A stretch of 64,000 bases of DNA from Vicugna vicugna (taxonomy: Eukaryota), in NCBI GenBank assembly GCA_013265495.1, contig MU058059.1, forward strand, positions 1,773,502 through 1,837,501, given 5' to 3'. Below, one piece after another: positions 30,688 through 54,949 of the stretch (the first letter of the stretch is position 1; the number at the start of each line of letters is the position of its first letter). The position numbers and the translations under genes are program-made. A model generated the notes under the pieces. The model was not told the origin of the DNA. It worked only from the letters and a program-made list of their open reading frames with translations, and did no database searches.

Positions 30688-30905
30688 AAGGAGAGCTTGA
30701 AGCAGAGTGGTTGCAAGACGTGGGTTTGTCAGCCCTGATCTCAGGTGATGAAGAGGAGGACGGCAAAGCCTTGCTCTCTACGCTGACTCGAACCCAAGCG
30801 GCTGCAGTGAAGAAGAGATATAATACTTACACTCAGACCATGAGAAAAAAGAACAAGCACCCTGTCAGGGATGTCAGAGACATCTTTGGAGTCAGCGAGT
30901 CTCCT
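30688..30905 (+). CDS. ARHGAP28: ARHGAP28 exon 3
   Basis: Acceptor tttacag|AA, donor CCT|gtgagt; encodes (E)GELEAEWLQDVGLSALISGDEEEDGKALLSTLTRTQAAAVKKRYNTYTQTMRKKNKHPVRDVRDIFGVSESP. Confidence 0.96.
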
Positions 30906-33179: not shown

Positions 33180-34510
33180 AGAAGTTCTTGGAACTGTATC
33201 TAAACTTTTAGCTTTCCTGTTTGAATCTGACAGCATGAATACCGATTCCTCCCTCCGGCCTTCTCTTCCTCCGAGTATTTGTAGCTCCTGATCAGTCTCT
33301 CTGAGTGTGTGTGCCTGTCTTCCCTCCTCCGCCTCCTCCTTCCTTGTATCTCTTCCTAAGTATCTCTTAAATGTTCTGTTGTATTTTCCAGGCTTTCAGT
33401 GTTCTGCATACCTGGCTATTTCTTCAGCTTTATCTTTTATATCATTTATTTGGCCTTGGTTGGTATTAACACTTTTGCCTTTCATTAATTTTCAAAACTT
33501 TAACAGTCATCTTATTTCCTGAAGCTTCTCCTTTCCCTTGATTTTTCCTTTATTTTGTGATCTGTTCTTGTTTCTTGGCTGCTGAAGCCTCTCAGAAGTC
33601 TGAAGTTACTAAATTAAACCTTAAATTCCAAGGCTCTCTTTTTCCCTCGAATTATCTCTTTCCTTCAAGGTCATCTGTTTAATTTTGGCTTCATTACATT
33701 GCTTTTGTTCAGCTGGTGTTGATCCTTGGATATTGATTCATATTCAGTGAGGAGAATTAGATTGATGGATTGATGGATTTGTACAGGTAGTCGTCATATA
33801 TCCTGTGCAGTTGTGCAGACCCATTTTCTCCCAAAAACTCTCCCCCGAAAATAGGAGTCTACGTGAGTGGTGAAGTGTGTCAGTGTCAACTGTCGCACTT
33901 CACTTTAAGACATATAAAAACAACATCAATGCCAAAGTAACAAGGGTCCTGCAGAATCGTAATTTTTTTCCTTTTCAGGCAAGCCTAGCTTCCCTTTTTA
34001 TATTCCTGTCTGTATCCTTTTAAAAAGCCCCAGTAAAGCGCAATTCAGTGTTCTTTCTGTCCAGGACCACCACACCCACGCTAGGACAGCCACTACCACT
34101 CCCAAGGCAGGTGGTCACTCTGTCACCAAGGGGACACTTGGGTTTTATCCTGGAATTACATTTAGCTGCTGCCTGCTGGTCTTCTGAACAGCTGGTGTCT
34201 TCTGAGTCAGGCAGTGCCTTTCTGTTCTTTTTATTTTCATTCTGGTTATGTGCTATTTCCAGATCAGTATTTACCTTCTACACATTTTTTCTCTTGTACC
34301 TACCTTTTTTAGGCTGAGGTTTTCCTCTACCCTTATCAAACCGTTCTTGCTTGCTTTTTATCTTCCAGGAACATCCGACAGTTTCTGTTCTGCTAATGGA
34401 AATGTCTAGTGGTTGCTAGGTCTACTTTTTGTAGAAGTTTTTCTCTCCCTTTTTGAGTGATTTGCAGGGGGAGGAGAAAGTGATACCTGCATTGTGCTGT
34501 GCTGATCCAG
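33180..34510 (-). mobile_element. Highly decayed L1ME-like 5' region
   Basis: T-rich antisense L1-like text; homologous to 38080-39720 (aattatctcttt...gatccttgg). Confidence 0.45.
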
Positions 34511-35029
34511 TTTCCTTATGCTAATTCTTCAGTAGTATTTGTTCCTTCCAAAAAATGTGTTTTTTTCCTTACTGTGAAAATAATACGTAAGCTTTACTGG
34601 AAACTTAGAAAATATGGACAAGCAAGGCAAAGAGTGAGTATTTCTATGGGCCCAAATACAATTTTATGATTTAATTAAGTATCCAGTAAATACAATTTTC
34701 AGTGTTCTAACCATGAAGGAACAGAATATTTCATCCTTGTTCTAGTAGAGCTATTAGACACTACAACACATATGTTAAATCAGACTCTGGATACATAGTA
34801 CATGGTCTGCAGTCCATCTCATTGTGAGCAGAAGTCCAGTGCCCAGACACATTTTTTTCTAATATTCAGAAGATGTATCAGTTATTCCTTTCAGTAACAC
34901 ATTTAATTAAGCAAAATAGTCAATCTAATCTATTTTCAACTTCATAATTGATAGATAGTTAAAGTTAGGACTAACTCCTAATTGACTATATAAATAAAGG
35001 TGTGCAATCATTTTAAAAAGTATTATTAT

Positions 35030-35505
35030 ATCACCTGTATATACATTTGACTGCATGTCACAGAAAACCCAAGAAATCATGAGTTATACAAAGATTTGTT
35101 TTTCTCTCTTTAAGAGGGAACTGAGGGTAGGTGTTCCTGTGTTTTAGCCCAGATCCAGCTTCCTTCTGTCTTTCTATTTTGTCTTTTACATGTGGCCATC
35201 ATTCTTTTGCTTCCCAAGGTGGCTGGGCCACTCCTGCCACCATGTCCATGTTCCTGGCTGTTCCCGGGACTTCTACCAACTGACTCCATCTCTCTGACTT
35301 TGGTTTCCCAGAATCCTTCCTTGGTACAATTCCAGTTACCTCTCATTGCCCAGAAATGTTACATGATCATCTTAGCTGCAAGAGAGCCTGAGAAGTTGAT
35401 TTTTTTTTTTTTGCACAAAGTTTTCTAGAAAAAACAAAAAATCAGGTCTTTTTAAGGAAGACAGACAACTGGGTTTTGGGTGGGCATTTGACAGTGTCTT
35501 CCACA
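35030..35505. mobile_element. Old MLT1-like LTR, copy in duplication unit A
   Basis: tttgactgcatgtcacagaaaaccc...cccaaggtggctg...tctcattgcccagaaatgttacatgatcatcttagctgcaagagagcctgag...cagtgtcttccaca. Confidence 0.65.
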
Positions 35506-35722
35506 GAGACCAGGGTTTATCCTGGTGCCTGGCATGCAGTGGGCGCGCAGTATTGACTTGAGACGGCCAGACGCAGTGACCGGCGCCCGGGCAGTCATGT
35601 CTGTGGCCATGTCAACAGAGCCGTGTGAGTGCACATCTCATGTGCCTGACACGTGACTGACTGCACAGTTACCCTTGGGAGGATACACCTGGATAAAAGT
35701 GCACTTTCATTTTTCTCAATAG

Positions 35723-35814
35723 CCAGGTGACTCTTGTTGTATCCCAGCTCCTCTTATGGACGTGACCCTGGGTGAAGAAGGGATCTCAGCAGTTCCCTGA
35801 GAAATGGTCAACTG
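35723..35814 (+). pseudogene. Pseudoexon paralogous to ARHGAP28 exons 4/5 (92 nt, frameshifted, splice sites intact)
   Basis: actttcatttttctcaatag|CCAGGTGAC...CTG|gtgaga; translates PGDSCCIPAPLMDVTLGEEGISAVP*, 10 of 25 residues identical to exon 5 without gaps; upstream flank is homologous to those of exons 4 and 5. Confidence 0.85.
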
Positions 35815-38800
35815 GTGAGATAATGCAAGGGGACACAAGAGCTTGGAGGTTAGGAAAAGGAGCTATTTCAGGGCAGCCAGGAAAATTTGAGGGGAAAAAA
35901 AAGCCTACTTACCTTATAATAATGAAGAAAAAAAAGACTCACTCAGGAATGAATAATTAAATAGTTAAATCCACAAATAACTATGTGGCCTACCTGTAAC
36001 TGCAGAACAAAAACAAGCAGAGCTGCAACCACAGCCGTGGCCAGAAGTCGGAACGTGGCACCAGTGCTCAGCTAGACTCTTGTCCCCTCTGCTGAGCACA
36101 TGATGGAAAATCTTACGCTACCATACATGTGTCTTTCAATATTAATTGAATTCCCACCATAAGAAATGTTTTGACATTTCAGTTGTTTTCTAAATGTAAA
36201 TATCTTGTGAGGAGCAGCAATGTAGCATCTTAAACATATAACAAGTGGGAAAAAGTGCACTGTCTTGCCAGGAGATATAAACACATTTCATTAAAGCCCA
36301 CGTTGTCCATTTTAGTACAGAATTTCAGAGAGTGCTGATCTGAGTTCAGAAATGCTAGTGAAGCTGTCTCAGTGAAAGAGGTGAATCCCACACTGATATG
36401 TACCTCTTGGCATGAAGCCAGGGTCCTCTTACTGAAGGTGCACCCTGAGTAGGAGACACAGAAGGACCTGGATTTACTGGCATCTGCCTCCACTTGGAGT
36501 CATGGCAACAGAAAATTTACAGTGAGAGACTTTCCTCTGTTATGTTTCTATGTGTGTCCTTCTCTTTAGTTCTTTATTTTTTGTCCTAGCAGAGGAAGAG
36601 GGATTTTTTTGTTGTTCTAAGAGTAACCCCTGTACCATTCTCGATCTAATGAAGATGAAGAGGAGGAGGAGGATGTTTAGATTCTATACAATTTCCTTTC
36701 TTCTTACATGTACTTTGTATGAGGCACTGTATCTGCATCTTACGATTGTCTTGATGCAGGCTAGCCCTTGGTCCCTTCCAAAATTCTGCTCAAGGGTTTG
36801 GATGTGGCGAGTTTGTGTTCTGGCCCCTCTTCTTCTGTTGCCTGAGGGTAGGTCAAGTTCTGGAGGTGAGGCTGTGAGCAATCCTGTTTTTGCCGATTTT
36901 GTCTCTGATTTCATTATATTTCTCATAAGAGTGTGAACTCCATCTTCACGTTTTCTTTTGAGTTGGCAGTAGGTGCCCTCAGGTTTTAGATTGTTCCCTC
37001 AGTGCAGGGAGTCTTCCATACCTTACTTCCAACCAGGACACTTAATCCGAGGTATTTGTTCCTCTGCCTGCCCCATGCCCTTTCACAGCAGCCCCTGCCT
37101 CTCCTCTAGGAGTAGACACGGGGTGTTTTCAAATGACAGGTGTCTATGAGCTTTTTACCCCCTCTGCCTTTACCTTCTGTTTTGATTGTCTGCTCCTCAC
37201 CCAAGGGTTGTAGGGTTGGCTCAACTCAGGACCCCTGACACTGGAGAGATGTGACAACAGTAGGTTATCTGCCACGTATTCTCATAGCCCAGTGGGGAGG
37301 ACACAAACACCACACAGAATCACACCTGGGGTGCACTTGGGAACAGAGTGAACAACCAGGGGTTACGAGAGCCAGGCTGTCTAGTATCAAGAGGGTGGGG
37401 TGCCCCCTGGTTCCCAGGGGAGGACGGGATTGGCTTGTTTGAATAATTCCAGGGGTGGACAGGGAACTGAAACCCACTGCTCAGGGATAAGCAGGAACTG
37501 CGTGTGTCTGGTCCCCTGAATAAGGTGGTTGTCTGGCTAGGGGCCTTAACTGGGGCAGGGTGAGCAGAGTGGGAGGGTACCTTGGGCTTAGATCACTTAC
37601 GGCCCTCTTTACCAGATGTCAAGGCAGCACATATGAGGGAGCCTTGTTTTAGATTGTGTTCCTCACCAACACTCACACCCAGCCTTGGGCTCCCATGGTG
37701 AGTCTAGGCTGGTTCTGTTTCTTTTCTCTTTTATCGCTATCTCTTTCATTAGTTTTTTTGAAGGTTTTGTCATCTTTTAAAAGTTAAAGGCAAGAGTGGT
37801 GCCAAACACGTGAGGAAATCTCCCACTGAGGTGGAAGAGAACAATTAGGTTTTTTTCCAGCCACACCCCTGAGCTACTCACCAGCTTGTAGAATGAGAAA
37901 GTAGTACTGTTCTTTATCAGCAGAGGAGGAGGAGGGCTAGCATAACAGAATGACCACAGGAATAGTAAAAATGTTAATGTGCGTAATCACGTCTGTTACA
38001 AAATGTCACATCTTCTTAGCAGATTGCATCTTTTATCCTTTGAGCAAATCTGGCAAGAAGTCTCTCTGGATACTAAATTTTCATATCCAAAAAGCTAAAT
38101 CCTAAACTGGTGAGTATCAAAATGCTAGGCCCTTAATCATTTTCTTTCAGAAATTTGTAAATAATCTGTTTACTTTTCCACATAATGTTAATGTTGAGAA
38201 ATCTGATACCTCTCTAAATCATTCCTTTATTCATATCCTGTTTTCATTTTTATATTTCTGGAAGCTTTTCAGGTTTATCTTTGTTGTTTGAGACCTAACC
38301 TGTCATCAGGATATGAAATCTTTTTTTTTATTATCATGATCAGTACTTAGCTTTTTGTTTCTAAAAAATGTTCCATTCCTTTCAGTTCTGAACATTTTTT
38401 CCTACTTTTATTTTATTGTAATCTCCATTTTCTCTATTCTAATTGCTTGCATTAAACTCACATATCTCTTCAAGTCACTTATATTTTCCATGCTCTTTTT
38501 CCTGTTTGTTCTGTATGCTAGCAGATTTTTGTCTGCATCATTTTGTAGAAAACTAATTCTGATTTTTGTCATGGGTGGCTGTAATCGGGTCCCTATTGAT
38601 TTTTAAAGTCAGCAATTATACTGTTAAGTCATAAGAACTACTCATTTTTTCACTGATTTCCCTTTAATGTTGTAGTTAGTCCTGATTTATGGTTGCAGTC
38701 GTCTCTCAAATCTAAAATTATTAAATCATTATAAGCCTTTTTCTCTTCCCCTAATTATCTCTTTCTCCCAGAATGTTTATCACCATACTTCTTTTTCAAA

Positions 38801-40259
38801 ATGTTGGTTTTGTCCATGGCTGACTTTTTTATGATGTTGACTTTCTCCAATGGCTGATCCTTGGTGATGGATTTATGTTTATTAATGGGGTGGATTGACT
38901 AATTAGTGACTTCTAGGATATGTCACTGCTGTATGATTTCTCTGCCGTTATATAGATATTTTCCCAAAGGACTCCTTATTGCGTAAGAGGGCTGACTTTG
39001 GGCCCTGTGTGAGTCCGCAAGATGTGTGAACAGTCTGTGAGTGGACATTATTTTAGTAGCACATACGGGTGAGTACATGGGTGTGTGTGTGTAGGCACAT
39101 GTATCCACACACAAATACACACAAGCACACCCCTTCAGTACCAAAGGGAGAGTGGCGAATGACATCATTCCCAGACAAAGCTGATGTTTTTCCCTTTTAT
39201 TCTCCTATCCACGTCTGTCATGAAGGTCCAGAGTGACCTGATGTTGAGGTCTCTTTTGATCCCAACTCTGGACATCTTCCCAAGGCAGGTAGTTTGCTTC
39301 ATTCAAAGTACTTTTCTTGGGTCCGTAATGGCTCCTGCCTGCTGTTCAGTGTAAAGGGAACTGCTGGGAGGTCTGTTGGGCCCCTCCATTGAGCAAGCAC
39401 CTTACAGTAAATTATCCTGACCATTGCTTGGGGCCCCTGCCTGTCCTTTGTAACTTTCTCTCTAAGCTTGGTTGTTTGTTTGCTTTTTGTGGATTTGTAC
39501 TTTCTTTGCCAGCAGTGTTGTCTAATGCTGTTCTGAGACTGAGAGTTTCTCTGCAACTATGAAATAAATTATTTACTTATAATTTTCCAGGAATTTCTAA
39601 CAATTTTTCATCTGTTAGTAGAACATTGCTCGTTTCTAGTGCCCTTCAGAGCTGTTCTTATAAAAATACGCCCTTTGTTTGCTTCTGAGTGGTAGGGAGT
39701 GGTACGCTGTCTGTCCTCCAGGAAAACTTAAGTTTTCTTGTACTGCCTCTTAAGCATTGTTTCCACTTCCAAATAGATGTGTTTTTCATATTAATGTAAT
39801 AATACACATTGGGGGAGAGTTAGAAAATTTGAAAAAGCAAGATGGAAAATAACAGTTTCTAAGGTCTCATGTAGAAGTTTATTTCATTAATACCGTGTGT
39901 GTTTAATTTTGCAAAAGGAGCTTTAATCATAGGAGAGAATATTTGCATATTATTTGGGGCAATGCCATTGTATGACAAAAGCTGCTCAAAATCTTAGCGC
40001 ATATGCACAAGGCCTACAGTACGGTACATCACAGTCAGAATAGTCTCCAAGTACACTTGCTGCATAATGGAAATCAGAGCTTTTCCAGTATTCTGGAATA
40101 CTTGATTCTATGGAATATTTGATTCTATCACATGTGTTTGTAAGACAACAATCTAATGAATTTCCAGTTTCATAATTGAAAAAAAACCTGACTACTCTTG
40201 CCTTTTATTTATAAATCATTGCAAAATACAGTCATAAAGTCAGATTTTGTAGTAGCATA

Positions 40260-40695
40260 ATTCTGTCAGTAAGCTGCATGATTTAGACAATTAGATGTTT
40301 ATTTCCCTTACAAAATAGGAAGTCTGAGTTTGGTATGACTGCTGTCCCCAGCATGGATCTACCTACTTTTTTGTCTTTCTCTTCTGCTCCACTTAGCATA
40401 CCGGCTAATGATTAATGCTTGTAGGATGTCCTGATATCACAGGTACCCTGTCCATGTATTGAAATAAGCATTGCCAGCTGATTCCATCCACTTCAACAAG
40501 AAAAATTAGCCCTCCTGGATGCTCTACCAAGTAGGATTCCACTCTTATCTATTGGACATAAGCATCACATGATCATACTTAGTCCTTTTAGATGGATGCA
40601 CAGCATCTGTCTAAAATCAGGTAAAATCAGGATATTCACATGTTAAGGGAGAAACAAAAAGTGGGTTTTGGCAGGCAGGTGGCCTTGTCTGCTTT
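40260..40695. mobile_element. Old MLT1-like LTR, copy in duplication unit B
   Basis: tctattggacataagcatcacatgatcatacttag...aaaatcaggatatt...gggttttggcaggcag. Confidence 0.55.
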
Positions 40696-40912
40696 TGAGA
40701 CCCATTTGTATTACAGTGCATGACGCTCATGAGGATCAACATTCTTATGGACTAATTGGTGAAAACTGTTAGCATTGCATTATAGTCATGAACTCTGTGT
40801 ATCTCCACATGGCTGCACATTTATACAGATTCTAGTGAAATGTGTAATTGAATAGACAGTCACATTGGGAAAGATATGCCTGGATAAAAACGACTTTCAT
40901 TTCTTTCCGTAG

Positions 40913-41005
40913 CCAGGTGATACCTGTGACAGCCATCCTAGTCAGTCGGATGACACCCGTGAGGAAAAAGAGCTGCCGGGAATTATCAAAACAGGTGGTT
41001 CCTTG
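40913..41005 (+). CDS. ARHGAP28: ARHGAP28 exon 4 (93 nt, phase 0-0)
   Basis: Acceptor ttctttccgtag|CCA, donor TTG|gtaagt; encodes PGDTCDSHPSQSDDTREEKELPGIIKTGGSL; absent from the ORF track and found by manual reading. Confidence 0.9.
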
Positions 41006-42924
41006 GTAAGTTACAGCAGAAGAATTGGGGGTAGGGGTGAAAAAAGAAGCCATTTCTTTAAGACAGTCATGCAAAACTCCAAAGCAATGAAATATAATTA
41101 AGATGGCTGGACACCCACAGCTGTCAACACACCTGTCTACCTTGAACAGATTTGTAGGAAGACATTTAGCAATTAATGAACTGAAGTGTAATAGTTAAAG
41201 CCACAAAAAACTACATGCTCTATAAAAGCAGATACTGCGCGGTGTACTGTTTACACGTATTTACATGCAATATAATGTGTATGCGCAGGTGGACAGTAAT
41301 CATTCTGCATAATAAAACTGGGGGAAAAGCAGGCCCTGTTATCAAACACATTTTGGAAATGCTGTATATCACATCTCCCTCTTACAGATTTAAAATGCTC
41401 ATCACTCTATTAATATCTGAAGGAAGAAGTCTCACGGTAAAGAAAAATTTTATTTCGTTGTTTGACCCTAAACTCCTTTTAAGAAGTAATTGTTAACGTC
41501 CTGTGTTACTGGTACACTTTGGAACCTGTGGAGCACTTTTTGATTAATGCTGCCGTAGGTGATATTGGCACCAGTTAAGATGCTTACCATGATAGGATCT
41601 GTCTTATCATTTTAGAGTGTAGTTTGATTACACAAGAATGGCTTTCTGGATAAAATGTCCAGTAATTCAGGCATCTACTCTGACCATAGTTTCATATTTG
41701 AATTTTAGAGGTACATATAATTTGTCAACAGTATAAAATGACGTAATTTATGTTCCTGGATAATAAGCCTATGTTTAGACAGCATTTGGGGCAAGAAATA
41801 AAGAAACATAGGGTTTTTAAAAAAAAGATACATACTTAGGAAACCAGTTATGGTAGGCATTTCTTTATGACATTTAGTTTCTTTACATTTTTATTTTATT
41901 TAAAAAAATTCTTGTAGAAATGTTGGCTCTGAATCACAGGTCCACAAGGTGTGGACCTCGAGTCACAGCACAGCTGTAGGTGTCCTCAGGTTGTCTGACC
42001 TTTTCCTGGTGCAGGGGGAACACCAGGCACCTTATTTCTGACCACACTCTTCACCCTTAGTGTCCAGTGCCCCTCCTGCTTCCCCATCCCCTGCTTTTTC
42101 CCAGAGCCCCCTCTACTCCCCATTTACCCAGAGGAGCGCGAGGTCAGGCAGGCCCTGGGGGAAAGATCGGGCTTCTGTCAGTTTACAGCTAGGAAAGATT
42201 GCTTTACTTACGGTTTAGCCAGAGCTTTTTCTTGCATCTGTCTTTACTTGCATTTCTGTCCTGAGCTGTCTCTTCTCTCTCGGTGGAGCTTGTGTACTCT
42301 GTTTTCCCCTTAATTTTTCCATCCTCACATTCCCTCTCCTAACTTCCTCCCGGGTAGAAAAATCAAAATGGTGAATCGCAGTAGGTTCCCTCCCCTGCTA
42401 CTGGGGATGGTACTGGGGAGAGACTTCGTTTAAAGGGCTATCTGCACATATTGAACCCAGATATGGTTACTCACACATTCAGTTGTTTTCTCTCATAATT
42501 TGAAGGAAATAGCAGTTGTCTATATCAAAAGTTCCTCCACTTGATGAGGAGGGAGGTGGATTTCGGAGAAGAATTTACTTCATTCCTAGAATACCTCCCC
42601 TCTACCACCGCTCGTGGGAATGCTGCTGGGATTCTTTTCCTATTTTTAGTTGTGTTTTGTTGACTCTACTAGGTTTTAGGAGAGAGAGACTTGGTCATCT
42701 GACTTAACTCTTGCATTATATCCTAGAATGTAATCCCTACTGTTTACAGAAATAACTCCTTTTTATATTAAAATTATCCACAATCTGCTCCCTGCTGATA
42801 TTTCCAACCTTTAGTTCCCTTGACTTAACTAACCGTCCTCTACTTTTGAAAACAAATGAACTTTCTCTTTCAAGAACATACTTTGAGTTTTCCAGCGGTA
42901 AAATTTTTTTAGTCTTTTCTCATC

Positions 42925-43730: not shown

Positions 43731-44139
43731 AAGAGTCCATATAATATTTTATGGTTTCATTACTATCCAACATACTTCTTTTGCAATAAGCTACTTATAA
43801 TAAAGGAATTGTCCATTCACGTATTATATGTGGTTGAGTCTTGACTGTAAATCACAAATGCCACAAAATCTGGGCATTTACAAAAGATTTATTTAGAAAA
43901 GGTATATAACCCAATCTACAGTCATCACAAACTATCCTACAAATCACTTGTATAGATAAAAGAAAACATTTCCCTATGTGTCATCAACATAAATGTTAGT
44001 CATTTGAGGTGTTAGTTTACTCAAAAGGCAAAGTAGTCGATCTAGTTTATTTCCAATGTCTTAAGTGAAAATCAAATAGCTATACTTACTATTGATTCAT
44101 AGTTCACTGCAAAATACAATCATACCATCTGTCAAAAAT

Positions 44140-44480
44140 TATCACTTACAGCTGTATTTGCTTTATAGAAAAGAAAATCTGGGAAACCATGATTTAAACA
44201 AGTAGGAGTTTGTTTTAATCACAAAACAAGCCAGGCTGGTACAAATGCAGTGGCAATCTTAGCATAAACATCTAACTTTCTCCTTTCATGCTGCCACCAT
44301 AGCATATGGATTTAATTCTTATACTTACAAGATGGTTAGCAAACTCTGGATACCATGCTGATGTTCCTGTTAGGGACATGTGCCAACTGACTGTTCATTA
44401 TTAATGGAAAACCTTAGCTCTCCTGAAAAACCTGTGCAGTAGAATTTCTCGTGTTGCTCATTGACCTACAGTTGCACTCT
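44140..44480. mobile_element. Old MLT1-like LTR, truncated copy in partial unit C
   Basis: Follows cactgcaaaatacaatcata as in the other units; gatttaaacaagtaggagtttg, caagatggttagc, gctcattgacc. Confidence 0.45.
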
Positions 44481-46211
44481 TAAATGACACTATTTGGGTT
44501 TCTTTTCTAATTTTGGTTGCCTGAATCTTACTCCTTTATAAGTAAGCTTTTTTTGTTTGCCCTCTCTGCACCGTTTTTTGAATTTTTGAATTTGAATTTT
44601 TTGCTGGAGTTCTGAACTTTTACAGGCATCTGCCTCTTGGTTCATTCATCTTGGTGACGGCTTAGTGAGTTCTTTCCTAAGAGCTGTTCTTTCTTTGACT
44701 TCTGGACATTGTCTTCTGTTATGTCTTAAATTATTTTTTTCTCTCTGTTTTCTATGCCCCCATTCTTCTAGAACATGTAGTAAATGGTTCTTGCTTTGCT
44801 TGAATTGAATTTCAGTATCCCCTACGTTTTTTTTTCATGTTAGTCTGTTTACTCTGATTTCTTCATCTTTATATTCCAGATTAGTAATTTTTTTTCTTGG
44901 TTATGATTCTGGTTTTTTTTTAGCTTGTCTCACTCCTTGTAAATTTCAGCAATGATATTTTTTTTTCCCAAAAACAACTTTTTTTCTCTCTGATTTACCG
45001 ACTATGGCAGCTGTAGTTTGTTGATTCATAGCAGCAATAGCCCCTTAAATCACTCGGAAGGTGAGAATTAAATTATTTTTAAGAAATCCAAATTACACAT
45101 TTGGATTGTTTCCAGTTTTGAGCTATTGTGAATAATGCTGCTGTGAACATTCCATGTAGTATAAAGGATGTGTATTCTCATTTCTTCTTGGTAAAGACGC
45201 AGCGTAGTTCAGATTGTTGGCAAACAAGCCACGTTCAGCCCTATCACCGATAGCTTTTAAACTCGGCAAGGAATAATTCGATAGGTAAATCAAAAATAGC
45301 TAAATTCTGTCTTTTAAAGAAGCATTTAACAGTAACAACAACAACAGAAACTTTTTTTTTAACATGTATCTTAAATGGAGGATGTTGTCAGTTAAGCTTG
45401 ATCCTTCTGGGTGAGCTTATACAGAAAAATAACAGACTACCATGTAAATCTTTTTTCAGTGTTTTCAGTATCAAGTAAGATACAAATATTTAGGTTTTTT
45501 CCTAGTACTTTCCAAATGTAAACGTCTTGTGTGGAGAACATGTTAACTTTGGGAATGTGTAGCAATAAGTGATAGAACAGTGGAGTTCTGCCTGAATGAA
45601 AGTACCATCTGACCAGGCCAGTGCACATCTCCCATTGGGCCGCAGCAGATGCCCGTGTTGTCTTCAGTACAGGGAGAGCTTCTGACTGAGACTGTGGATC
45701 CTCGGTGTTTTTTCCTGTCCGCCTTCTCAGTCCCTCCACCATACCCCGTCTGTCAGAATCCTGTCACAGCAGGAAGATGAGATGAGCCAGCAAAGGTTCC
45801 ATCTCAGGAAGCGCAGGGTGGGACGTGTTCATGAGGCAGGAGGTACCAGCACACTTTCAGGCAGAACTCCACCTTCCTGGGCCCCTACAGGTCTCTGCAG
45901 TCATGGGGCAAGTCTTCAGTGATTTTTGATTGATTACTGTAGGAAATTGCATAAGTTTCCTCTGCAATTGAGTAGATCAATTTTCCTAAAAGGCCAAAAT
46001 TGTTGATTGTGGTTTTGTGAGTGAGTGCCGTGTACTTAACTTTGAGGTGCGTAGAGGGGGAAGGTAGGTTAGTAAGCTCTCCTCACATGCAAAACAGTGA
46101 AGGGAATGAAGAGCTCTTCTTCATTCCAGGAAAAGCTAATGTCATTTTTCAGTCTCCCCTCCATGTCTTTGGTTGTGGTCTCCTGAGGTCCTTCTCTCTT
46201 AGACCTCTATA

Positions 46212-46499
46212 CAGTCCTCCCTCAGTATCCACAGGGGATTGGTTTCAGGACCCCCCAGGATACCAGAATCCATGGATGCCCAATCCCCTTATATAAATGG
46301 CATAATACTTGCATATAACCTACACACACCCTCCTCTATACTTTGTCATCTCAAGATTACTTCTCTGTAAATGGTTAAGGGCATGTGCAAAATTCAAGTT
46401 TTGTTTTGGGGAACTTTCTGGAATTTTTTTTTCAAATATTATCCATCCAGGTTGGTTGGATCTGCAAATGTAGAACCCAGGGAGGCAGAGGGTCAGCTG
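46212..46499 (+). mobile_element. MER2-like TcMar-Tigger element
   Basis: TA|cagtcctccctcagtatcc...gcagagggtcagctg|TA; terminal inverted repeats and TA target duplication. Confidence 0.85.
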
Positions 46500-47314
46500 T
46501 ACTCAAACTAGGAGTGCACATCCCCCCAAGGCAGTTAGTTCATTTCACTTAGACTGAATTTTGGTGGGGGGTTTCTAGGGTTGTATCTAGGGGCTGTCTG
46601 CATATTAAGGAGAGATGGTCCAGTTGGCTTCTAATTTGCAAACAAGTCTTAAAGCTGTTGCCTCTGGCCCTTTCCTGCTCTTTGTGCATCCTGTTACTTG
46701 TTTTTCTCTGCTTTCTCTAGAAATTTTCCTTTGTGCTGTTTCATGTAGAGGTTTTTATTTTACCAAACCAATTCTGTTTGCTTTTCATTCAGAAATTCCT
46801 AACAGTTGGTCTGCTGTGGAATTCTTTGCTTGTTTTTAGTGCTGTTAAAAATCTGTTCCTTTAAAAAATAAATGTTTTCTGCCATTTTTAGTGATTTGGG
46901 GTGGGAGGGGAGTTAGATGATTGTCAGGCTTGCCATCTTGACGTAAAACACAAGAAGTAGCACAGAAATTTATTTGTTCCTTTAAAGAAAAAAGAGTCCT
47001 TTGTTCATTTTATACAGTAATGCATACTGTTTATAGAAGATTTAGAAAATACGGTCAAGGAAGATGAGTGACAGTTTTTTAAAAGACAAAATTAATCAAA
47101 TTTAGTATCAGATATATTCAGTTTTGCAATAAGATTCCTTCAGTAAAGAAAAGAATATTCGTGTCTTAATTTCAGTAATGACATTTTGCACTAAAGCAGA
47201 AATCTTGTACTTCAAGCCTTATAAATGAAAAAAACTATTTGGTGCTATTGCTACTGAATTCTAATCACTGCAAAATACAGTTATAGGGTCTATTAAAAAA
47301 ATAAGATTAGACAA

Positions 47315-47761
47315 GTTAAGTATGTGTTTGGTTGCATGTAATAGAAAAGTAGGAGTTGCTTTGGTTCATATGGAGATGCTTAAGGGGGGTGGTCCAAGCC
47401 TGAGAGGGCAGCCACATGATGCACAGACCCAGCCATCTCTGCCATCCATCATCCTCATGGGAACAAGGAGCCTGCCAGCTCCAGGCTGTCATCTGTGCTG
47501 CTGTCATGAGCAGGTATGAGCTGACCCCATTCTTTTGGTCAGGAAAGCCATAACTTCTCTAGAAGCACTCTTGGTAAAATCACATTTCCACCTTGTTGAC
47601 CACACTTGTCACATGATCACTGTTAGCTGCACAGATCACTGTTAGCTGCACAGAAGCCTGGAAATCAAGTTCTTTGGTTGAACACCTAACTCCCTGAAAC
47701 AAAACCAAGATCTTTTTAAGGAAAATGGAGTTGCTGGCAGGCAGGAGCAGTGTCCGCCACA
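47315..47761. mobile_element. Old MLT1-like LTR, copy in duplication unit D
   Basis: tttggttgcatgtaatagaaaa...gctccagg...gtcacatgatcactgttagctgc...gcaggcaggagcagtgtccgccaca. Confidence 0.6.
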
Positions 47762-47930
47762 GAGGCCAGAGTCTAGCAGGGGGCTCACAATGATGATATC
47801 TGAAGGGCTGGTGCAGGTGCCCGTGATAACCTTGTATATTGCCACGCATATCTGAGTATATACACGAGGTGGCATACACAGGAGACAGCATTTGCCTGAA
47901 TAAGAATGGTACTTTCATTTCTCCATTTAG

Positions 47931-48020
47931 CCAGATGATGCTTCTCTCAACAGTACTACCTTGTCAGATGGGTCCCTGGATGAAGAAGAGGGTTTTGCAG
48001 TTCCGAGGAGTGGTTCCGTG
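47931..48020 (+). CDS. ARHGAP28: ARHGAP28 exon 5 (90 nt, phase 0-0)
   Basis: Acceptor ctccatttag|CCA, donor GTG|gtaagt; encodes PDDASLNSTTLSDGSLDEEEGFAVPRSGSV. Confidence 0.93.
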
Positions 48021-50739
48021 GTAAGTCATGCATGCCAAGACAGTTGCATGTCAGGACAAAACTGCAAGTTCAAGGCAAGAAGAAGCAGTTTCTTCAAAAC
48101 AGAGGAGAAAACATTGAACTAACATTGCAAGGTAAACCAAAGATACCAGTAGACCCACCAACCTTGTAACAGGAAGAAGGAGGCTTAAAACAGAATGAAT
48201 AGACTTCAGTTTAAAAGAGGACTGCATAAATTAATACCACTGCTACACTCAGAAACCAAAGGGTGTTCTCTAAAGCATCAAGCATGGTGGAATTTGTTAA
48301 CTTTGGTCCCCTTGGCTGAGTTCATGCAAAGGATCTGTACTAATTCTGCCATCTTAACTTAGAAGTCCTTTTACCTGCAGGATAAATTAAAATTTCCTCA
48401 TCCTGATATTGAAGGCTCTCCACTGTTGCCTACATACCCAGTGTTAGATCTCAGGACTCACTCATACAAACCCTCCACTTCAGACAAATTCACTCACTTG
48501 GCCTTGAGTAATGGAACTTCTACTTTTCTTTGTCTAAAACTGTCTTTTTCCCCCGTCTCCTCCCTTCCACTGGGCATCCCCACTTGGTGTCCCTGTGCAG
48601 AAGCTCTGCAGGGGTGACATAATGGACCATAAGTAAGAGACCCTGCTGGATGAGGTAGCGATTCTCCAATAAAAGGCGATGGAAGGGAGCAGATAGCAGG
48701 GCAGATGGGCAGATGGAGGGGGCACATTCAGTGTCCCAGGGGCAGTAGCTTCTCATCTGTTGTGCAGTTTGATAGACAGGGTAGGCGACATTCTCCCAGG
48801 ATAGCCCCACTGTTCAGGGAGAGAATGCTGTTAGCCCCATGTGAATGAGCTTTTCTGTTGTGTTTTCAAATTTTTGGTTATGAGGTTGTTTTGTTTGTCT
48901 CATGGTGATCATAGAAGAAGCATAAAATAATGTGAGTGACTTTTGTCAAAAGCACTACAGGTACAGCACACATAGGCTAAGAGTTACTCACAACTTCTGA
49001 CGTACTAGCCTTAAATTCAGCTGTCACTTCCTGGTTAAGACCACCCACTGGAATGCAGATGAGTGAGGATATCTCTGTTTTAGAGATAATCTCCAGTCCA
49101 CCCTCACTGATGAAAACAAAGTCAGTCAGTCACAAACTCTGGTAACTCCTAGAAATGAGGGGTTACCTGTAGTAGTCCTTACACGGTTGTGCTGTGCCCC
49201 TGTAATGAAGAACTCCTATTCTAAGTAAGGCCTGGCCCAGGAGCCTTCCTTTTCGGTCTCAGCTGGTGGTATCTGTGTCCAGGACTCAGCTCTAAGTGTT
49301 CTCCTCCCCTCCGCCTGGCTTCTCCCCTCTACGTGCCCATCTCTGAGACCTGTGGATTTCATCTCATCTGGTAAATAGTTCTAGAAAAGTTTTACTCCCC
49401 TCTTTTCCTGCAACTACTTCTTAGTGCAGAAACTCATCATCATCTTTCTGTGTTACTGAAGCAGCTGTCTAAGTGATCTCCCAGACTTTAGCTTATACCC
49501 TCCCATTTTACCCTCCTTGCAACTGCAAGTCATCCATCTGAAGTGTGAATCTTGCTTAATGCCTACAGCGTTTCCCCCAACACTTTCTAGTTAATGTGAG
49601 AGCTCCTGATGTAGTCTGACCCCTCGTCTGCCCCTAGCTGACTTTGCCTTTCATATAAGCAACAAGAAAGTACACTGAGTGGTTCCATGCACAGACAAAG
49701 CAGAACTTGAAGCAGGATGTCCGCACAGTTGAGCTACTAAGAAGAGGGGGTTGCGTAGGCCTGTTTTCTAGACTTTCCATGGCAGTTCCATGACTGCAGT
49801 TCCACTGCTAGTAGACCTTTGCTAGTCATGTTTTTCTATTTCTTCATTCTTTGCTGCTTGCTTCTCTATGTTACTGTTTCATTGATTCACTCATTTATTC
49901 AGTCACCAAATCCTCACAGAGCACACATTGTCTACAAATGGATTCTTGAAAGTTTAAGAGTGTATGAGAAAGAAAATGATCTTGGATGGCAGCTGTAGAT
50001 AGAGCTTCCTGGGGTAAATTAATCAGATTTCAATTTTGTTTTCATTTTGTTTTTCAGAAAACTGATTGAATGTTGATAATGACATAAGTAAAATTTCAGC
50101 AGTGTTGAGACTCAAAAAATTTTCATTGGTACCAGTCTCAAGTGTGACTTGCTTTGGATTGTTTGTTACTTAGAATATCTTTACTTAGAAATGTTTAAAA
50201 AATTGATTAGTTGCTGAAGTAGCCCACAGATGCCAATTCAAGCCTTTCTGCACATGTACTGAGAATCATTATGGAACTTCTTACCATGAGGTAGATACAG
50301 TTTGACTTCCTTGCTTCTCGGTTATAATGAGCCACCTCTGTTTGGTTCTCCAGTCTGTCCTAGATGGTGGATTTCCAGTAACTCAGTGAATGGTGGTGAG
50401 GGCTTCCAGGTTCTGGCTGTGATGCTCATAGAGGAAAACCCCACAGACAGTTTACTGTCGTCTCCGAGGCTCCAGAGGCTCCCAGCAACTTGCACTGTTA
50501 GAATTCATGTTGTGGAATAGGCAGTAGTAGGCAGCCTAACTTTATCTTTTCCAAGGGGTAACCTTGTCTTGACCAGTACCTTTCTTTTTCATCTTTTCTA
50601 CTTGTTTGATTTGCACTTTTATGATAAGTGGAATCTCTACATACACAGGGTCTATCTAAATGACTATGGCTCTATGGTTTGTTTATTTAAATCTGCTACA
50701 GTAAGTTCACCCTCACCGTTCTGAATCAAAATCTTCTTT

Positions 50740-52720
50740 CTTCTCAGAAATTTTTTCTTTCAGCTGAACCTTATAATAATGCTATCACTACCCATTAAAA
50801 AATCTTGGTAGGACTCCACTAAGAATTCTGTTGAATTTAAAGATTAATGTTGGGGAGGGAATTCGTATCTGAAAATATTGAGTCTTCCCATTGGGAAATA
50901 ATGATTGTGTCTTCCCACTTATTTGTATCTTCTGTGCTTCAATAAAATTCCATACTTTCCTTTCTTAACGTTTTTTCTTACATATTTTTTCATTGGTTAA
51001 TTACTAGGAACGTAATAGTTTCATTGGTGTTTTAAATGGTAGGAGTTTTTCATATCTTCCAGTTTGTTTTTGTGGGTACATAAGAAAGGCGTTTGTTTGT
51101 TTCTCACAAAAGTATCTCGTATCTTTCTTTCTGAAAATTTTTTTATCTCTTAGAATTTTTCATTTGATTTTATTCTTTGTGCAGAAATTGTCTAAAATAC
51201 TGAAAGTTTTGTTTGCACCAACTTTAAAATGCAGTTGGACCTCCTTATTTGTAGGTTCTGCACCCGTGGATTCAGATTGAATTGAAATTCAATTGAAAAT
51301 ATTTGGGGAAAAAATTTCAGAAAGTTCCAAAAAGCAAAACTTGAATTTGCTGTATACCAGCAACTATTTATATAACATTTACATTGTATTAGCTGTTATA
51401 CGTAATCTGGAGAGGCTTTAAAGTATACAGAAGGATGTGCATAGGTTACGTGCAAATACCACACCTTTTTATATAAGGAACTTGACTATTCATGGATTTT
51501 GGTATCCTTGGGGGTTCTGGAACAATCCCCCATGAATACCAAGGGACGATTGTAGTTATTCATCTTATTTACTTTCCTTATCTTATTAGACTGATCACAA
51601 TCACTTATAACATTGAATAATAACTGTGAGGATATTTTGATACATTTTTAATTGTCTCTGTTTCCTTGTGAGTTCTTCTAAGTTTCATTATTAAATAGAA
51701 TATTTGTTCTGGGTTTCTGAGCCTTGTAGTTGCTTTGATCAAGAATAGAGGTTGAATTATATCAAATGATTATTCATAATTTATTAAAATGAATATATTG
51801 GTTTTCATCTTTAAAAGGCAATTGCCTTAGGTGATTACATTGATAGGTTTTTCTAATGTGAACTGTAGTTTCGCTGCTTTGTTAAACCACACTTGTGTTA
51901 CATTATTCTTTTCTTACACTACTGAATATGATTCGCTACTGGTTTAGCATTTTAACCACTATTGTAATAGTGGATTAACCTATATATATATAATTTATTT
52001 TTGTTGTTACCAGAGTTATGCTAATCTTGGTACAAACATGTTGAGAACTTAGGATTTTTTCAGTATTTTGGAGCTGTTTATTAAACTTTGGTGTAAATAT
52101 ATAATCTGTAAAAACTGTTATGCATAATTTTATGCCAAGGTCTAGCATCATTGTAGGCCTAATGCTTTGGTTAATTTTTCAATGAATATGGCTTAAGGAT
52201 TATATTTCTTTGAGTCCCAACTTGTATGAATTTTGTTAGTGTGTATTTGTTTTAGTAAAATATCCAATTCATTTAGAGTTTCAATATGTGGTGTGTGTGT
52301 ACATATATACAAATACATGCACACACTTATTTAGGTGTATAATTTTAAAATTTTCTGTGAAGGTAACTATTATTCCTTTTTTGTTCCTAAAATTTATATC
52401 TTTTATCTCAGTCAGAACTGTAAATACTTGCCTGTGTTGGCAATAATTCTTTTAAAAAGTCACTACTTTTAACTAACTAGTCTACTTTTTCTATTGTGTT
52501 AACTTATTTAATTCTCCTTAATTTTTTTCATTCATTTTTGGATCTACTTGGATAATTTTTTCTTGTCTCTTGTATTATAAATATTTAATTTTAAACTTTG
52601 TTATTTGCATTTAAGATTAAGAAGTAATCTCTGAATAATACTTTGGCTATTCCCTTGGATTTTTGGAATTTATTGCTCTCATTGTCTTTAATGTTTTGTT
52701 TATAATTTCAGATATGATTC
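50740..52720 (-). mobile_element. Highly decayed L1 fragment with nested MER2
   Basis: gttgaatttaaagattaat...aatattgagtcttccca, gttgaattatatcaaatga antisense ORF2-like text. Confidence 0.6.
51232..51552 (-). mobile_element. MER2-like TcMar-Tigger element, inverted relative to the 46212 copy
   Basis: The reverse complement of its end (caatcgtcccttggtattcatgggggattgttccagaacccc) matches the start of the 46212 copy; aaagttccaaaaagcaaaacttgaatttgc core. Confidence 0.85.
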
Positions 52721-52848: not shown

Positions 52849-53072
52849 ATGGGGAATTTGGCACAGTGGTTGCAAGATGTGGGTTTATCTGTCCTGATCT
52901 CAGGTGCAGAAGAGGAATATGGGGAACCTTATCATCTGTATTGACTCAAGCACAGGCAGCTTTAGTATATAGAGTTATATATTATATAGCACATAGGTTC
53001 AAACCAGGAGGGAAAAACCAAACAGCCAGTAAGGAAGATCAGAAACACCTTTTGAGTCAGTGCATTTTTCCT
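52849..53072 (+). pseudogene. Degenerate duplicate of ARHGAP28 exon 3
   Basis: AQWLQDVGLSVLISGAEEEYG vs exon 3 AEWLQDVGLSALISGDEEEDG (40/45 nt identical over the first 15 codons); then indels and stops, with LTQAQAALV and QPVRKIRNTF*VS remnants; acceptor AG not retained. Confidence 0.92.
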
Positions 53073-54949
53073 GTTAAGTAGTGAACATGGAAAATATTTG
53101 ATATGATGTTTCTTTACTGTGAAGGAAATACCAGATTGTCAAAGTCTAGTTTTAGGAGAACTCAGTCATACAGTGCTAATAAACTACATTGTGGAATTTC
53201 AGGTAATAATCTCTCAACCTCGACTCTCCAATCCCAGTACAGTATGATGTGGGCGCTGGTGGCTCGGAGTCTGTGCTTCTCCTTAACCAGTTGAAGCCCC
53301 AGTGACACTCTTGTGCTTTGCTGTGTAGGGAGATGCTTTTCCCTTAAGGACAAGCAGGGAAGTTTGTCTTAAATGGGAGTGGTATTTATGTTTGAAATAC
53401 ATTAAAATCACTAGTAAAAATTTTTTAAAGGTTCTAATGTTAATGTGTGTAATGACAAATGGATCTTTTTAAACTATGAATACCAAGCAACTAGCCTTTT
53501 CACTCAACCTGTTTGAAAACTTGAGGTTTATTGGCAGAGAGATCTGCCTTTTCATTTTCACCCAGTCCTTCCCTGGCTTTAACACGTGCATGTTCTTTTG
53601 TTTGTTTTGTTGTGTTGCATTTTAACCCTTACAAATCTAAATCTGAACACCTGGCTTTCAAAACTTTCTTGACTAATGTATTTTTCTAATACCTTGTCTT
53701 AACTCCTGGCAAAGGAGGCTCTCTGATCCTCTTATGAAGCTGAAAGGCTTCAGATTTCCATACCTGACCTGTGTAATTCCGAGGCTAGCCTGAGTGCCTT
53801 GCCTGCCTTCTGTGCCTTCGAAAGTCGTTTTCATCATTCCTCGAGTTCTAGCACAAGGTCAGCCACCTCTTCCTCTTCATTACTCTCCAGTAAACGCTTA
53901 CAGGGGTATTGTAGAAGTTAGCTGTTATCAGTGGATTGTCCTCTAACCGTGTTCCGTAAATATCACTCTCTTCTCCTCATCATAAATAGCTGAAGAGCTA
54001 CTTATTCCTGCTTCCCCCTAAGAAAGTCCCAGGATAATCGTCATTACGAAGAGCCAGGCGCTCATTCAGCACTATAGGTCGGCTGGAGGCCAGTTAAACT
54101 AAGACAGCAGGTAACCCTTCTCCACTTTACAGATTAGGAAATGGACATTTAGTAGATTCAAGCATCCCAAACCATCGGCTTCAAGCCCTATTTGAATGTC
54201 TCTCAGTTTTCAAGAGTTCTCGCCCATAGATGAGTTATTGCAAAGTTTGATAAAGTATTTCTTTGTTGGAAAACTTAAGGAAACTACTGAAAAGAGTTCC
54301 GGGTCTTTTTTAAGGATTTTAGTATCCTATAGTGTTGGTTTTTCGAACTACCAGTTACATAATTGGGCATCTGTGTTTTAGTAATTGGCTATGTATTCAC
54401 ATCCTGTTTACACAGTAAGATGTGTCATCTCCTTTGGAATAAAATTGGGGAGAGAACCCAAAGCTCAGCATTCGAGATTCCCGTGTGCAATTTATATGCC
54501 ATGATAAAAGATCTTTCACGAGGCAGGTGTTCTGTTCATATTGCTAAATAAATATGAGAATAAAAGAAACAACACCAGGCTCTGGGGAAAAACAACAGGC
54601 CGACGTGTGAAGAGCATGTAGAAGATTCTTGGTGGAATGGCAGCTCTTCACCCTCACACATACACACAGCTGATAACTTCCACTCAGAAGTTTACATTGG
54701 TACAAACGGTAGGTTTTGTGTGTAAAGGTTTTACCAGTACCCATCCCACCTGAGCAGTATCTCACTTCACAGGGCCCTACAAAGATGGATACTCAGCTTC
54801 TGGTAACATCGCAGGGGAACACAGTGCTTTGGCAGGATTGCAGTGAGGAAAGTAACTAATTAAGAGAGGAAACTAAGCTAAAAAACATACTTACTGTTTG
54901 GTAGTTATCACTCTATTTCATAGCGAAGAGATTTATATATTAATACATT

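Follow-up and report, generated by a model that had tools for sequence, protein, structure and literature searches.

A tandem array of duplicated exons in ARHGAP28 and the probable loss of one coding cassette in the camelid lineage

The DNA considered here is a 64,000-nucleotide stretch of the Vicugna vicugna genome (GCA_013265495.1, contig MU058059.1, positions 1,773,502 to 1,837,501), referred to as the window, and nucleotide coordinates are those of the window. The host gene, ARHGAP28, is identified by exon 3, which matches the Vicugna pacos isoform X1 (P0001, 747 aa) at 100% identity. Exons 2-10 of P0001 were placed on the window by tblastn. As described in the accessible part of PMC4161385, ARHGAP28 is a RhoA GAP with two C-terminal isoforms, and mouse knockouts are without an overt phenotype. 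The present study concerns a small exon between exons 3 and 4, termed exon X, and its paralogues. The features involved are the following.

30688-30905, + strand: exon 3, the upstream partner of exon X; ends in phase 0
34217-35992, + strand: duplication unit holding exon X together with intron on its flanks; the units of exons 4 and 5 are its homologues
35683-35722, + strand: acceptor region of exon X, with 13 of 16 pyrimidines and tag; 31 of 39 aligned bases are the same as in the exon 4 acceptor region
35723-35814, + strand: exon X, a cassette exon of ARHGAP28 that follows exon 3 and precedes exon 4; it has 92 nt, against 31 codons (93 nt) in its orthologues
35798-35800, + strand: premature TGA in exon X, at an apparent 1-nt deletion in codon 26; two bases remain at 35798-35799 and the orthologous frame is back from 35800
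35812-35822, + strand: donor of exon X, CTG/gtgaga; U1 duplex -8.1 kcal/mol
40913-41005, + strand: exon 4, 93 nt, paralogue of exon X; unit about 39436-41222
43731-45672, + strand: fourth duplication unit, exonless; both flanks retained, with unrelated T-rich DNA at the exon site (about 44.5-45.25 kb)
47931-48020, + strand: exon 5, 90 nt, paralogue of exon X; unit about 46491-48217
52851-53235, + strand: dead genomic copy, disrupted by stops and frameshifts, of exon 3 and some 180 nt of intron 3

Exons X, 4 and 5 each start and finish in phase 0. As the preliminary description of this DNA had reported, exon X is 92 nt long, with a pyrimidine tract and a tag/CCA acceptor on one side and a CTG/gtgaga donor on the other, and it reads as 25 open codons followed by the TGA. 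Its proposal that exon X is a third paralogue of exons 4 and 5 is borne out by global alignment, where z is 6.6 for exon 4 and 8.3 for exon 5 and none of 500 shuffles per comparison reached the real score.

The likeness extends into the introns. The units of exons X, 4 and 5 align pairwise at 62-65% over about 1.5-1.6 kb of exon and intron (scores 8496-14773; controls at most 3261). Adjacent homologous exons with homologous flanking introns, the mark of tandem exon duplication, are therefore present at the locus, and the alignments show that a unit of exon plus intron was duplicated in tandem to give exons X, 4 and 5. A fourth unit lies between exons 4 and 5. Its upstream flank is seen in the match of 34881-35351 to 43995-44466 (score 6781; controls at most 3261), and its downstream flank in that of 35941-36320 to 45261-45672 (score 3456; reversed control 2217). 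No exon remnant was found in it by nhmmer with a three-exon profile, and the T-rich DNA at its exon site appears L1-like by eye. For the dead copy of exon 3 further downstream, a retrocopy origin was rejected, as the copy extends into intron 3.

The exons of the array are 54-61% identical to each other. Their flanking introns are at least as alike (61-65%), which suggests that the exons diverged fast once they had been duplicated. The upstream introns of the three exon-bearing units are 61, 65 and 64% identical. Afrotheres have both exon 4 and exon 5, and divergence is about equal among the three units; exon X is therefore probably of the same age as its two paralogues and would have been lost more than once. 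Pfam holds no family for the X, 4 and 5 modules. It was also observed that an inverted pair (46210-46446 and 51292-51554, 68% over 264 nt), probably two old repeat copies, flanks exon 5; pairing of these repeats could favour exon 5 skipping.

It had been suggested that exon X might be coding in other mammals, and indeed 21 database proteins, drawn from 15 genera and five laurasiatherian orders, contain it in frame at a length of 31 residues. Among 120 listed of 1401 exon-3 matches, five proteins (dog, fox and two bats) were seen to have an extra segment after exon 3. An exon-directed search then gave 22 candidates, 21 of which contain exon X in frame, all at 31 residues. The bearers are canids, felids, Rhinolophus, Myotis, Molossus, a dolphin, red deer, black rhinoceros and a shrew, and their proteins are predicted annotations. 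They include fox X1 (P0066, residues 200-230), dolphin X1 (P0122), cheetah X1 (P0124), deer X1 (P0135) and shrew X2 (P0136). The fox exon X sequence is PDDFCCIPVPLLDVTLDEEGISAIPCRNGQL; by tblastn, residues 200-224 of P0066 match exon X of the window at 76% (E 1.7e-7) and exon 5 at 42% (E 0.63). Across seven taxa, the mean pairwise identity is 73% for both exon X and exon 4, and 76% for exon 5.

By its sequence, exon X of the window is orthologous to this laurasiatherian cassette, being in the same gene, position and phase, and nearer to it than to exon 4 or 5. Like the cassette, it lies between exons 3 and 4 in the same phase, with 18-24 of 30 residues identical. Unlike the cassette, it is one base shorter, stops at codon 26, differs by four private residues, and is skipped in the alpaca isoform X1. 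The exon had been called very diverged. This holds against the paralogues, and does not hold against the orthologues, where that range was obtained for 30 scorable residues in 13 taxa.

The nature of the lesion had to be revised. The preliminary description took the 90-nt exon 5 as a template and proposed a 2-nt insertion into a 90-nt exon, although exon 4 is 93 nt long. All 21 orthologous exons span 31 residues, so the intact length is 93 nt, and the 2-nt reading is rejected. The window has 92 nt with a TGA in this assembly in place of an open frame of 93 nt. It matches the orthologues codon for codon, save at codon 26, which has only two bases (TG at 35798-35799, with AGA from 35800). At this residue the orthologues have Cys (18 of 21), Ser (2 of 21) or Pro (1 of 21). 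The lesion is thus, in this assembly, a 1-nt deletion at codon 26 of a 93-nt exon, with the place of the missing base taken from protein orthologues and not from orthologous DNA.

How the modules are combined was counted in 123 proteins of 500 residues or more, of which 107 were drawn without regard to exon X. Exons 4 and 5 together occur in 62 proteins, exon 5 alone in 20, exon 4 alone in 14, X with 4 in nine, all three in nine, none in six, X with 5 in three, and X alone in none. Seven of the eight possible combinations hence occur among annotated isoforms; these are predicted annotations, not measured inclusion. The co-occurrence of exons 4 and 5 in 62 of 123 proteins, and of all three in 9 of 123, does not agree with a mutually exclusive cluster. 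Exon X itself is present in only 5 of the 107 proteins drawn without regard to it, and looks like the minor module of the array.

The spread of the modules is uneven. Exon 4 is absent from all seven named vespertilionid proteins (P0006, P0022, P0027, P0035, P0044, P0056 and P0132), a possible reciprocal exon loss, seen at the protein level. In Molossus P0133, a shortened exon 4 was noticed. Exon X was found in none of 33 named rodent, rabbit, tree-shrew, primate or afrotherian proteins by a word-based search, which may miss diverged copies and covers proteins, not genomes. Farther out, 145 of 147 new representatives in a 50% library are without any module, and the other two are close relatives of the mammalian protein. 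In the divergent homologue P0199, exon 3 passes directly into exon-6-like sequence. The array looks mammalian, in a sample that does not include marsupials.

The protein segment concerned was viewed in an AlphaFold2 model of the 778-aa dolphin isoform (60-row alignment, mean pLDDT 72.6). The pLDDT falls below 50 over residues 201-326, which may partly reflect a segment present in about a third of the alignment rows. The three modules occupy residues 200-291, between the helical N-terminal region and the GAP core. Exons X, 4 and 5 are accordingly predicted to encode disordered sequence that links the N-terminal helical domain to the GAP core, and the modules most likely act as an adjustable linker. 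Acylation of the cysteines of exon X is a speculation.

Apart from the missing base, exon X shows no excess of decay, in line with the earlier impression that it looks recently disabled. Private residues number 4 of 30, against 6 of 61 in exons 4 and 5 together (Fisher P = 0.72). With respect to 13 orthologues, they are at positions 2, 4, 12 and 17, at sites identical in 12 or 13 of the 13. With respect to seven taxa, the counts are 3 of 31 for exon 4, 3 of 30 for exon 5 and 4 of 30 for exon X, with no significant excess. The splice sites are similarly well kept. The donor duplex with U1 lies within the range of nine other window donors (-5.5 to -9.2 kcal/mol), and the 13 pyrimidines of the acceptor within that of seven others (10-14), a comparison made without exons 2 and 9. 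The likeness of the acceptor region to that of exon 4 is above all of 127 upstream 40-column windows; against exon 5 there is no special likeness, as 37 of 109 windows reach it. The lack of excess decay and the splice sites resembling those of real exons suit a recent loss, and fit equally an intact exon with a sequencing error.

Some further observations were made around these sites. No AG/GT pair that would rescue the frame passed the filters, set at 9 or more pyrimidines in 16 and a U1 duplex below -5, in about 35560-35990. Exon X (35723-35732) and exon 4 (40913-40922) both start with CCAGGTGA, which places a second AG four bases in, together with a donor-like GT; use of this AG in exon X would not restore the frame. 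Branch-point patterns 15-50 nt upstream were seen for none of exons X, 4 and 5, and are mostly present for the six other exons assessed.

Inclusion of the exon would have a clear outcome. When exon 3 is joined to exon X, a stop follows after 25 residues, whichever exon comes next. The product would end at 224 residues in P0001 numbering, against a RhoGAP start at 417, which upholds the earlier claim of an early stop before the GAP domain. By the established rule, a stop that precedes a later junction by more than 50 nt should lead to nonsense-mediated decay (NMD). Here, the exon 4/5 junction would come 107 nt after the stop and be followed by others. Because many junctions lie downstream, inclusion of exon X is expected, by this rule, to trigger NMD.

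Taken together, exon X is probably an old coding cassette exon of ARHGAP28 that has lost one base in the camelid lineage and is now a pseudoexon, that is, a lineage-specific loss of a dispensable cassette. Each module can seemingly be skipped independently, and so may serve as a dispensable length or motif unit of the linker. A frameshift in the least-used module could then be tolerated, since the mRNA that skips X would still yield the full 747-residue protein, and residual inclusion would be cleared passively by NMD. The splice sites may have escaped decay so far because little time has passed since the loss, or because the leak costs little. Other losses in the array, namely the exonless fourth unit and the missing exon 4 of vespertilionid proteins, are counted in favour of such a loss. 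The reading takes the deletion from one assembly and assumes that exon X is skipped in camelids.

It is also conceivable, though unlikely, that the missing base is an assembly error or one animal's allele, and that camelids keep a working 93-nt cassette exon. The single lesion, the intact splice sites and the lack of excess amino-acid change would all follow from this. The alpaca isoform X1 (747 aa), which skips exon X, may stem from the same assembly and would then not be independent, and a camelid 778-aa isoform bearing X could hide in the dolphin protein cluster (alpaca-dolphin identity 91.7%). However, the inferred missing base falls between G and A, not within a homopolymer, though it adjoins a CCC run, and the four private changes are at otherwise nearly invariant positions. 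No camelid protein was among the 21 bearers found by the exon-directed search, and the Camelus isoform P0002 skips exon X; both points weigh little. A search for short proteins containing exon X gave no candidate. In a search of sequencing runs, 20 of the 24 DNA runs listed contained all four sampled words, too small a sample (fewer than five words) to count as evidence; 15 of the exon's 62 31-mers cross the deletion point, and the chance that none of them was sampled is 0.32. These runs come from six studies under six organism labels, each flagged as a possible source of the window, and no RNA run was among the matches listed.

The preliminary description had also raised the possibility of a poison exon. 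The frameshifted exon would be kept for regulation, its inherited tissue-specific splicing now sending the mRNA to NMD, so that RhoA-GAP dosage would fall in places where a longer protein is made in other mammals. The splice sites that score like those of real exons, the acceptor nearer to that of exon 4 than any of the 127 windows, and the many junctions after the stop agree with it, and the accessible text of PMC2697156 supports regulation as viable for ancient NMD exons. Nevertheless, the stop is not conserved, every orthologue found (21 of 21) being in frame. The conservation of the acceptor is explained by the coding past of exon X, a caveat made in that part of PMC2697156 itself, and the likeness is not found against exon 5. 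This role is hence improbable. That exon X has been dead since its duplication, which its identity to exons 4 and 5, not above that of flanking intron, might suggest, is very improbable and largely refuted by the in-frame exon of 15 genera, conserved as well as exon 4.

A bolder version would join the poison role to the array. A mammal-specific set of skippable 30-31-residue modules would be in ongoing birth and death, and the camelid frameshifted X, if still regulated, would be a poison exon caught at birth. We regard this as a long shot. If true, the loss of a single base made an NMD switch out of a cassette that used to lengthen the protein.

For the loss of a dispensable cassette, the significance is modest: what is put on record is an array of duplicated exons and, probably, the loss of one of them in camelids. 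Exon X is already annotated in other mammals, and exon loss is an ordinary process. The organismal stakes look low because the mouse knockouts, in the accessible part of PMC4161385, are without an overt phenotype. The four-unit array with its apparent reciprocal losses is the more interesting part. According to the accessible text of PMC11350913, ARHGAP28 shows fast eutherian evolution, with a dN/dS of 0.39 on the eutherian stem, and testis expression; the array is a testable candidate for part of this fast evolution. The natural isoform series, from zero to three modules, could test whether linker length tunes RhoA-GAP activity or location. High ARHGAP28 in camel muscle stem cells is reported in the accessible part of bioRxiv 10.1101/2025.09.02.673668.

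The array was not found in the literature covered, which included few subscription papers and yielded none that links ARHGAP28 to the alpaca or to exon duplication; the supplements of PMC9013439, PMC11350913 and bioRxiv 10.1101/2025.09.02.673668 may list exon X. The main text of PMC9013439 does not mention ARHGAP28, and neither do one supplement of PMC8373072 and 10 supplements of PMC5740500. The string 'splic' is absent from the text of PMC4161385 that was accessible, as are 'insertion' and 'duplicat' from the main text of PMC11350913.

Several known systems resemble the locus in part. As in the tandem exon duplications of the accessible portions of PMC9013439 and PMC8373072, ARHGAP28 has adjacent homologous exons duplicated with their flanking introns. 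Unlike mutually exclusive tandem duplicates, its modules are additive cassettes, skipped independently and found all together in nine proteins. A poison exon such as that of Smndc1, as presented in the accessible part of PMC11357089, is conserved, and like it, inclusion of exon X would bring a premature stop upstream of many junctions. The frameshift of exon X, in contrast, is lineage-restricted, its orthologues are coding, its host gene is no splicing factor, and its inclusion is hypothetical. Closest to the preferred reading is the lineage-specific loss of minor cassette exons documented in the accessible part of PMC2231371. Similarly, exon X is minor, frame-preserving and conserved in some mammals, and is disabled in another. 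It differs from those cases in that the lost exon belongs to a paralogous array, of which other lineages appear to have lost other members.
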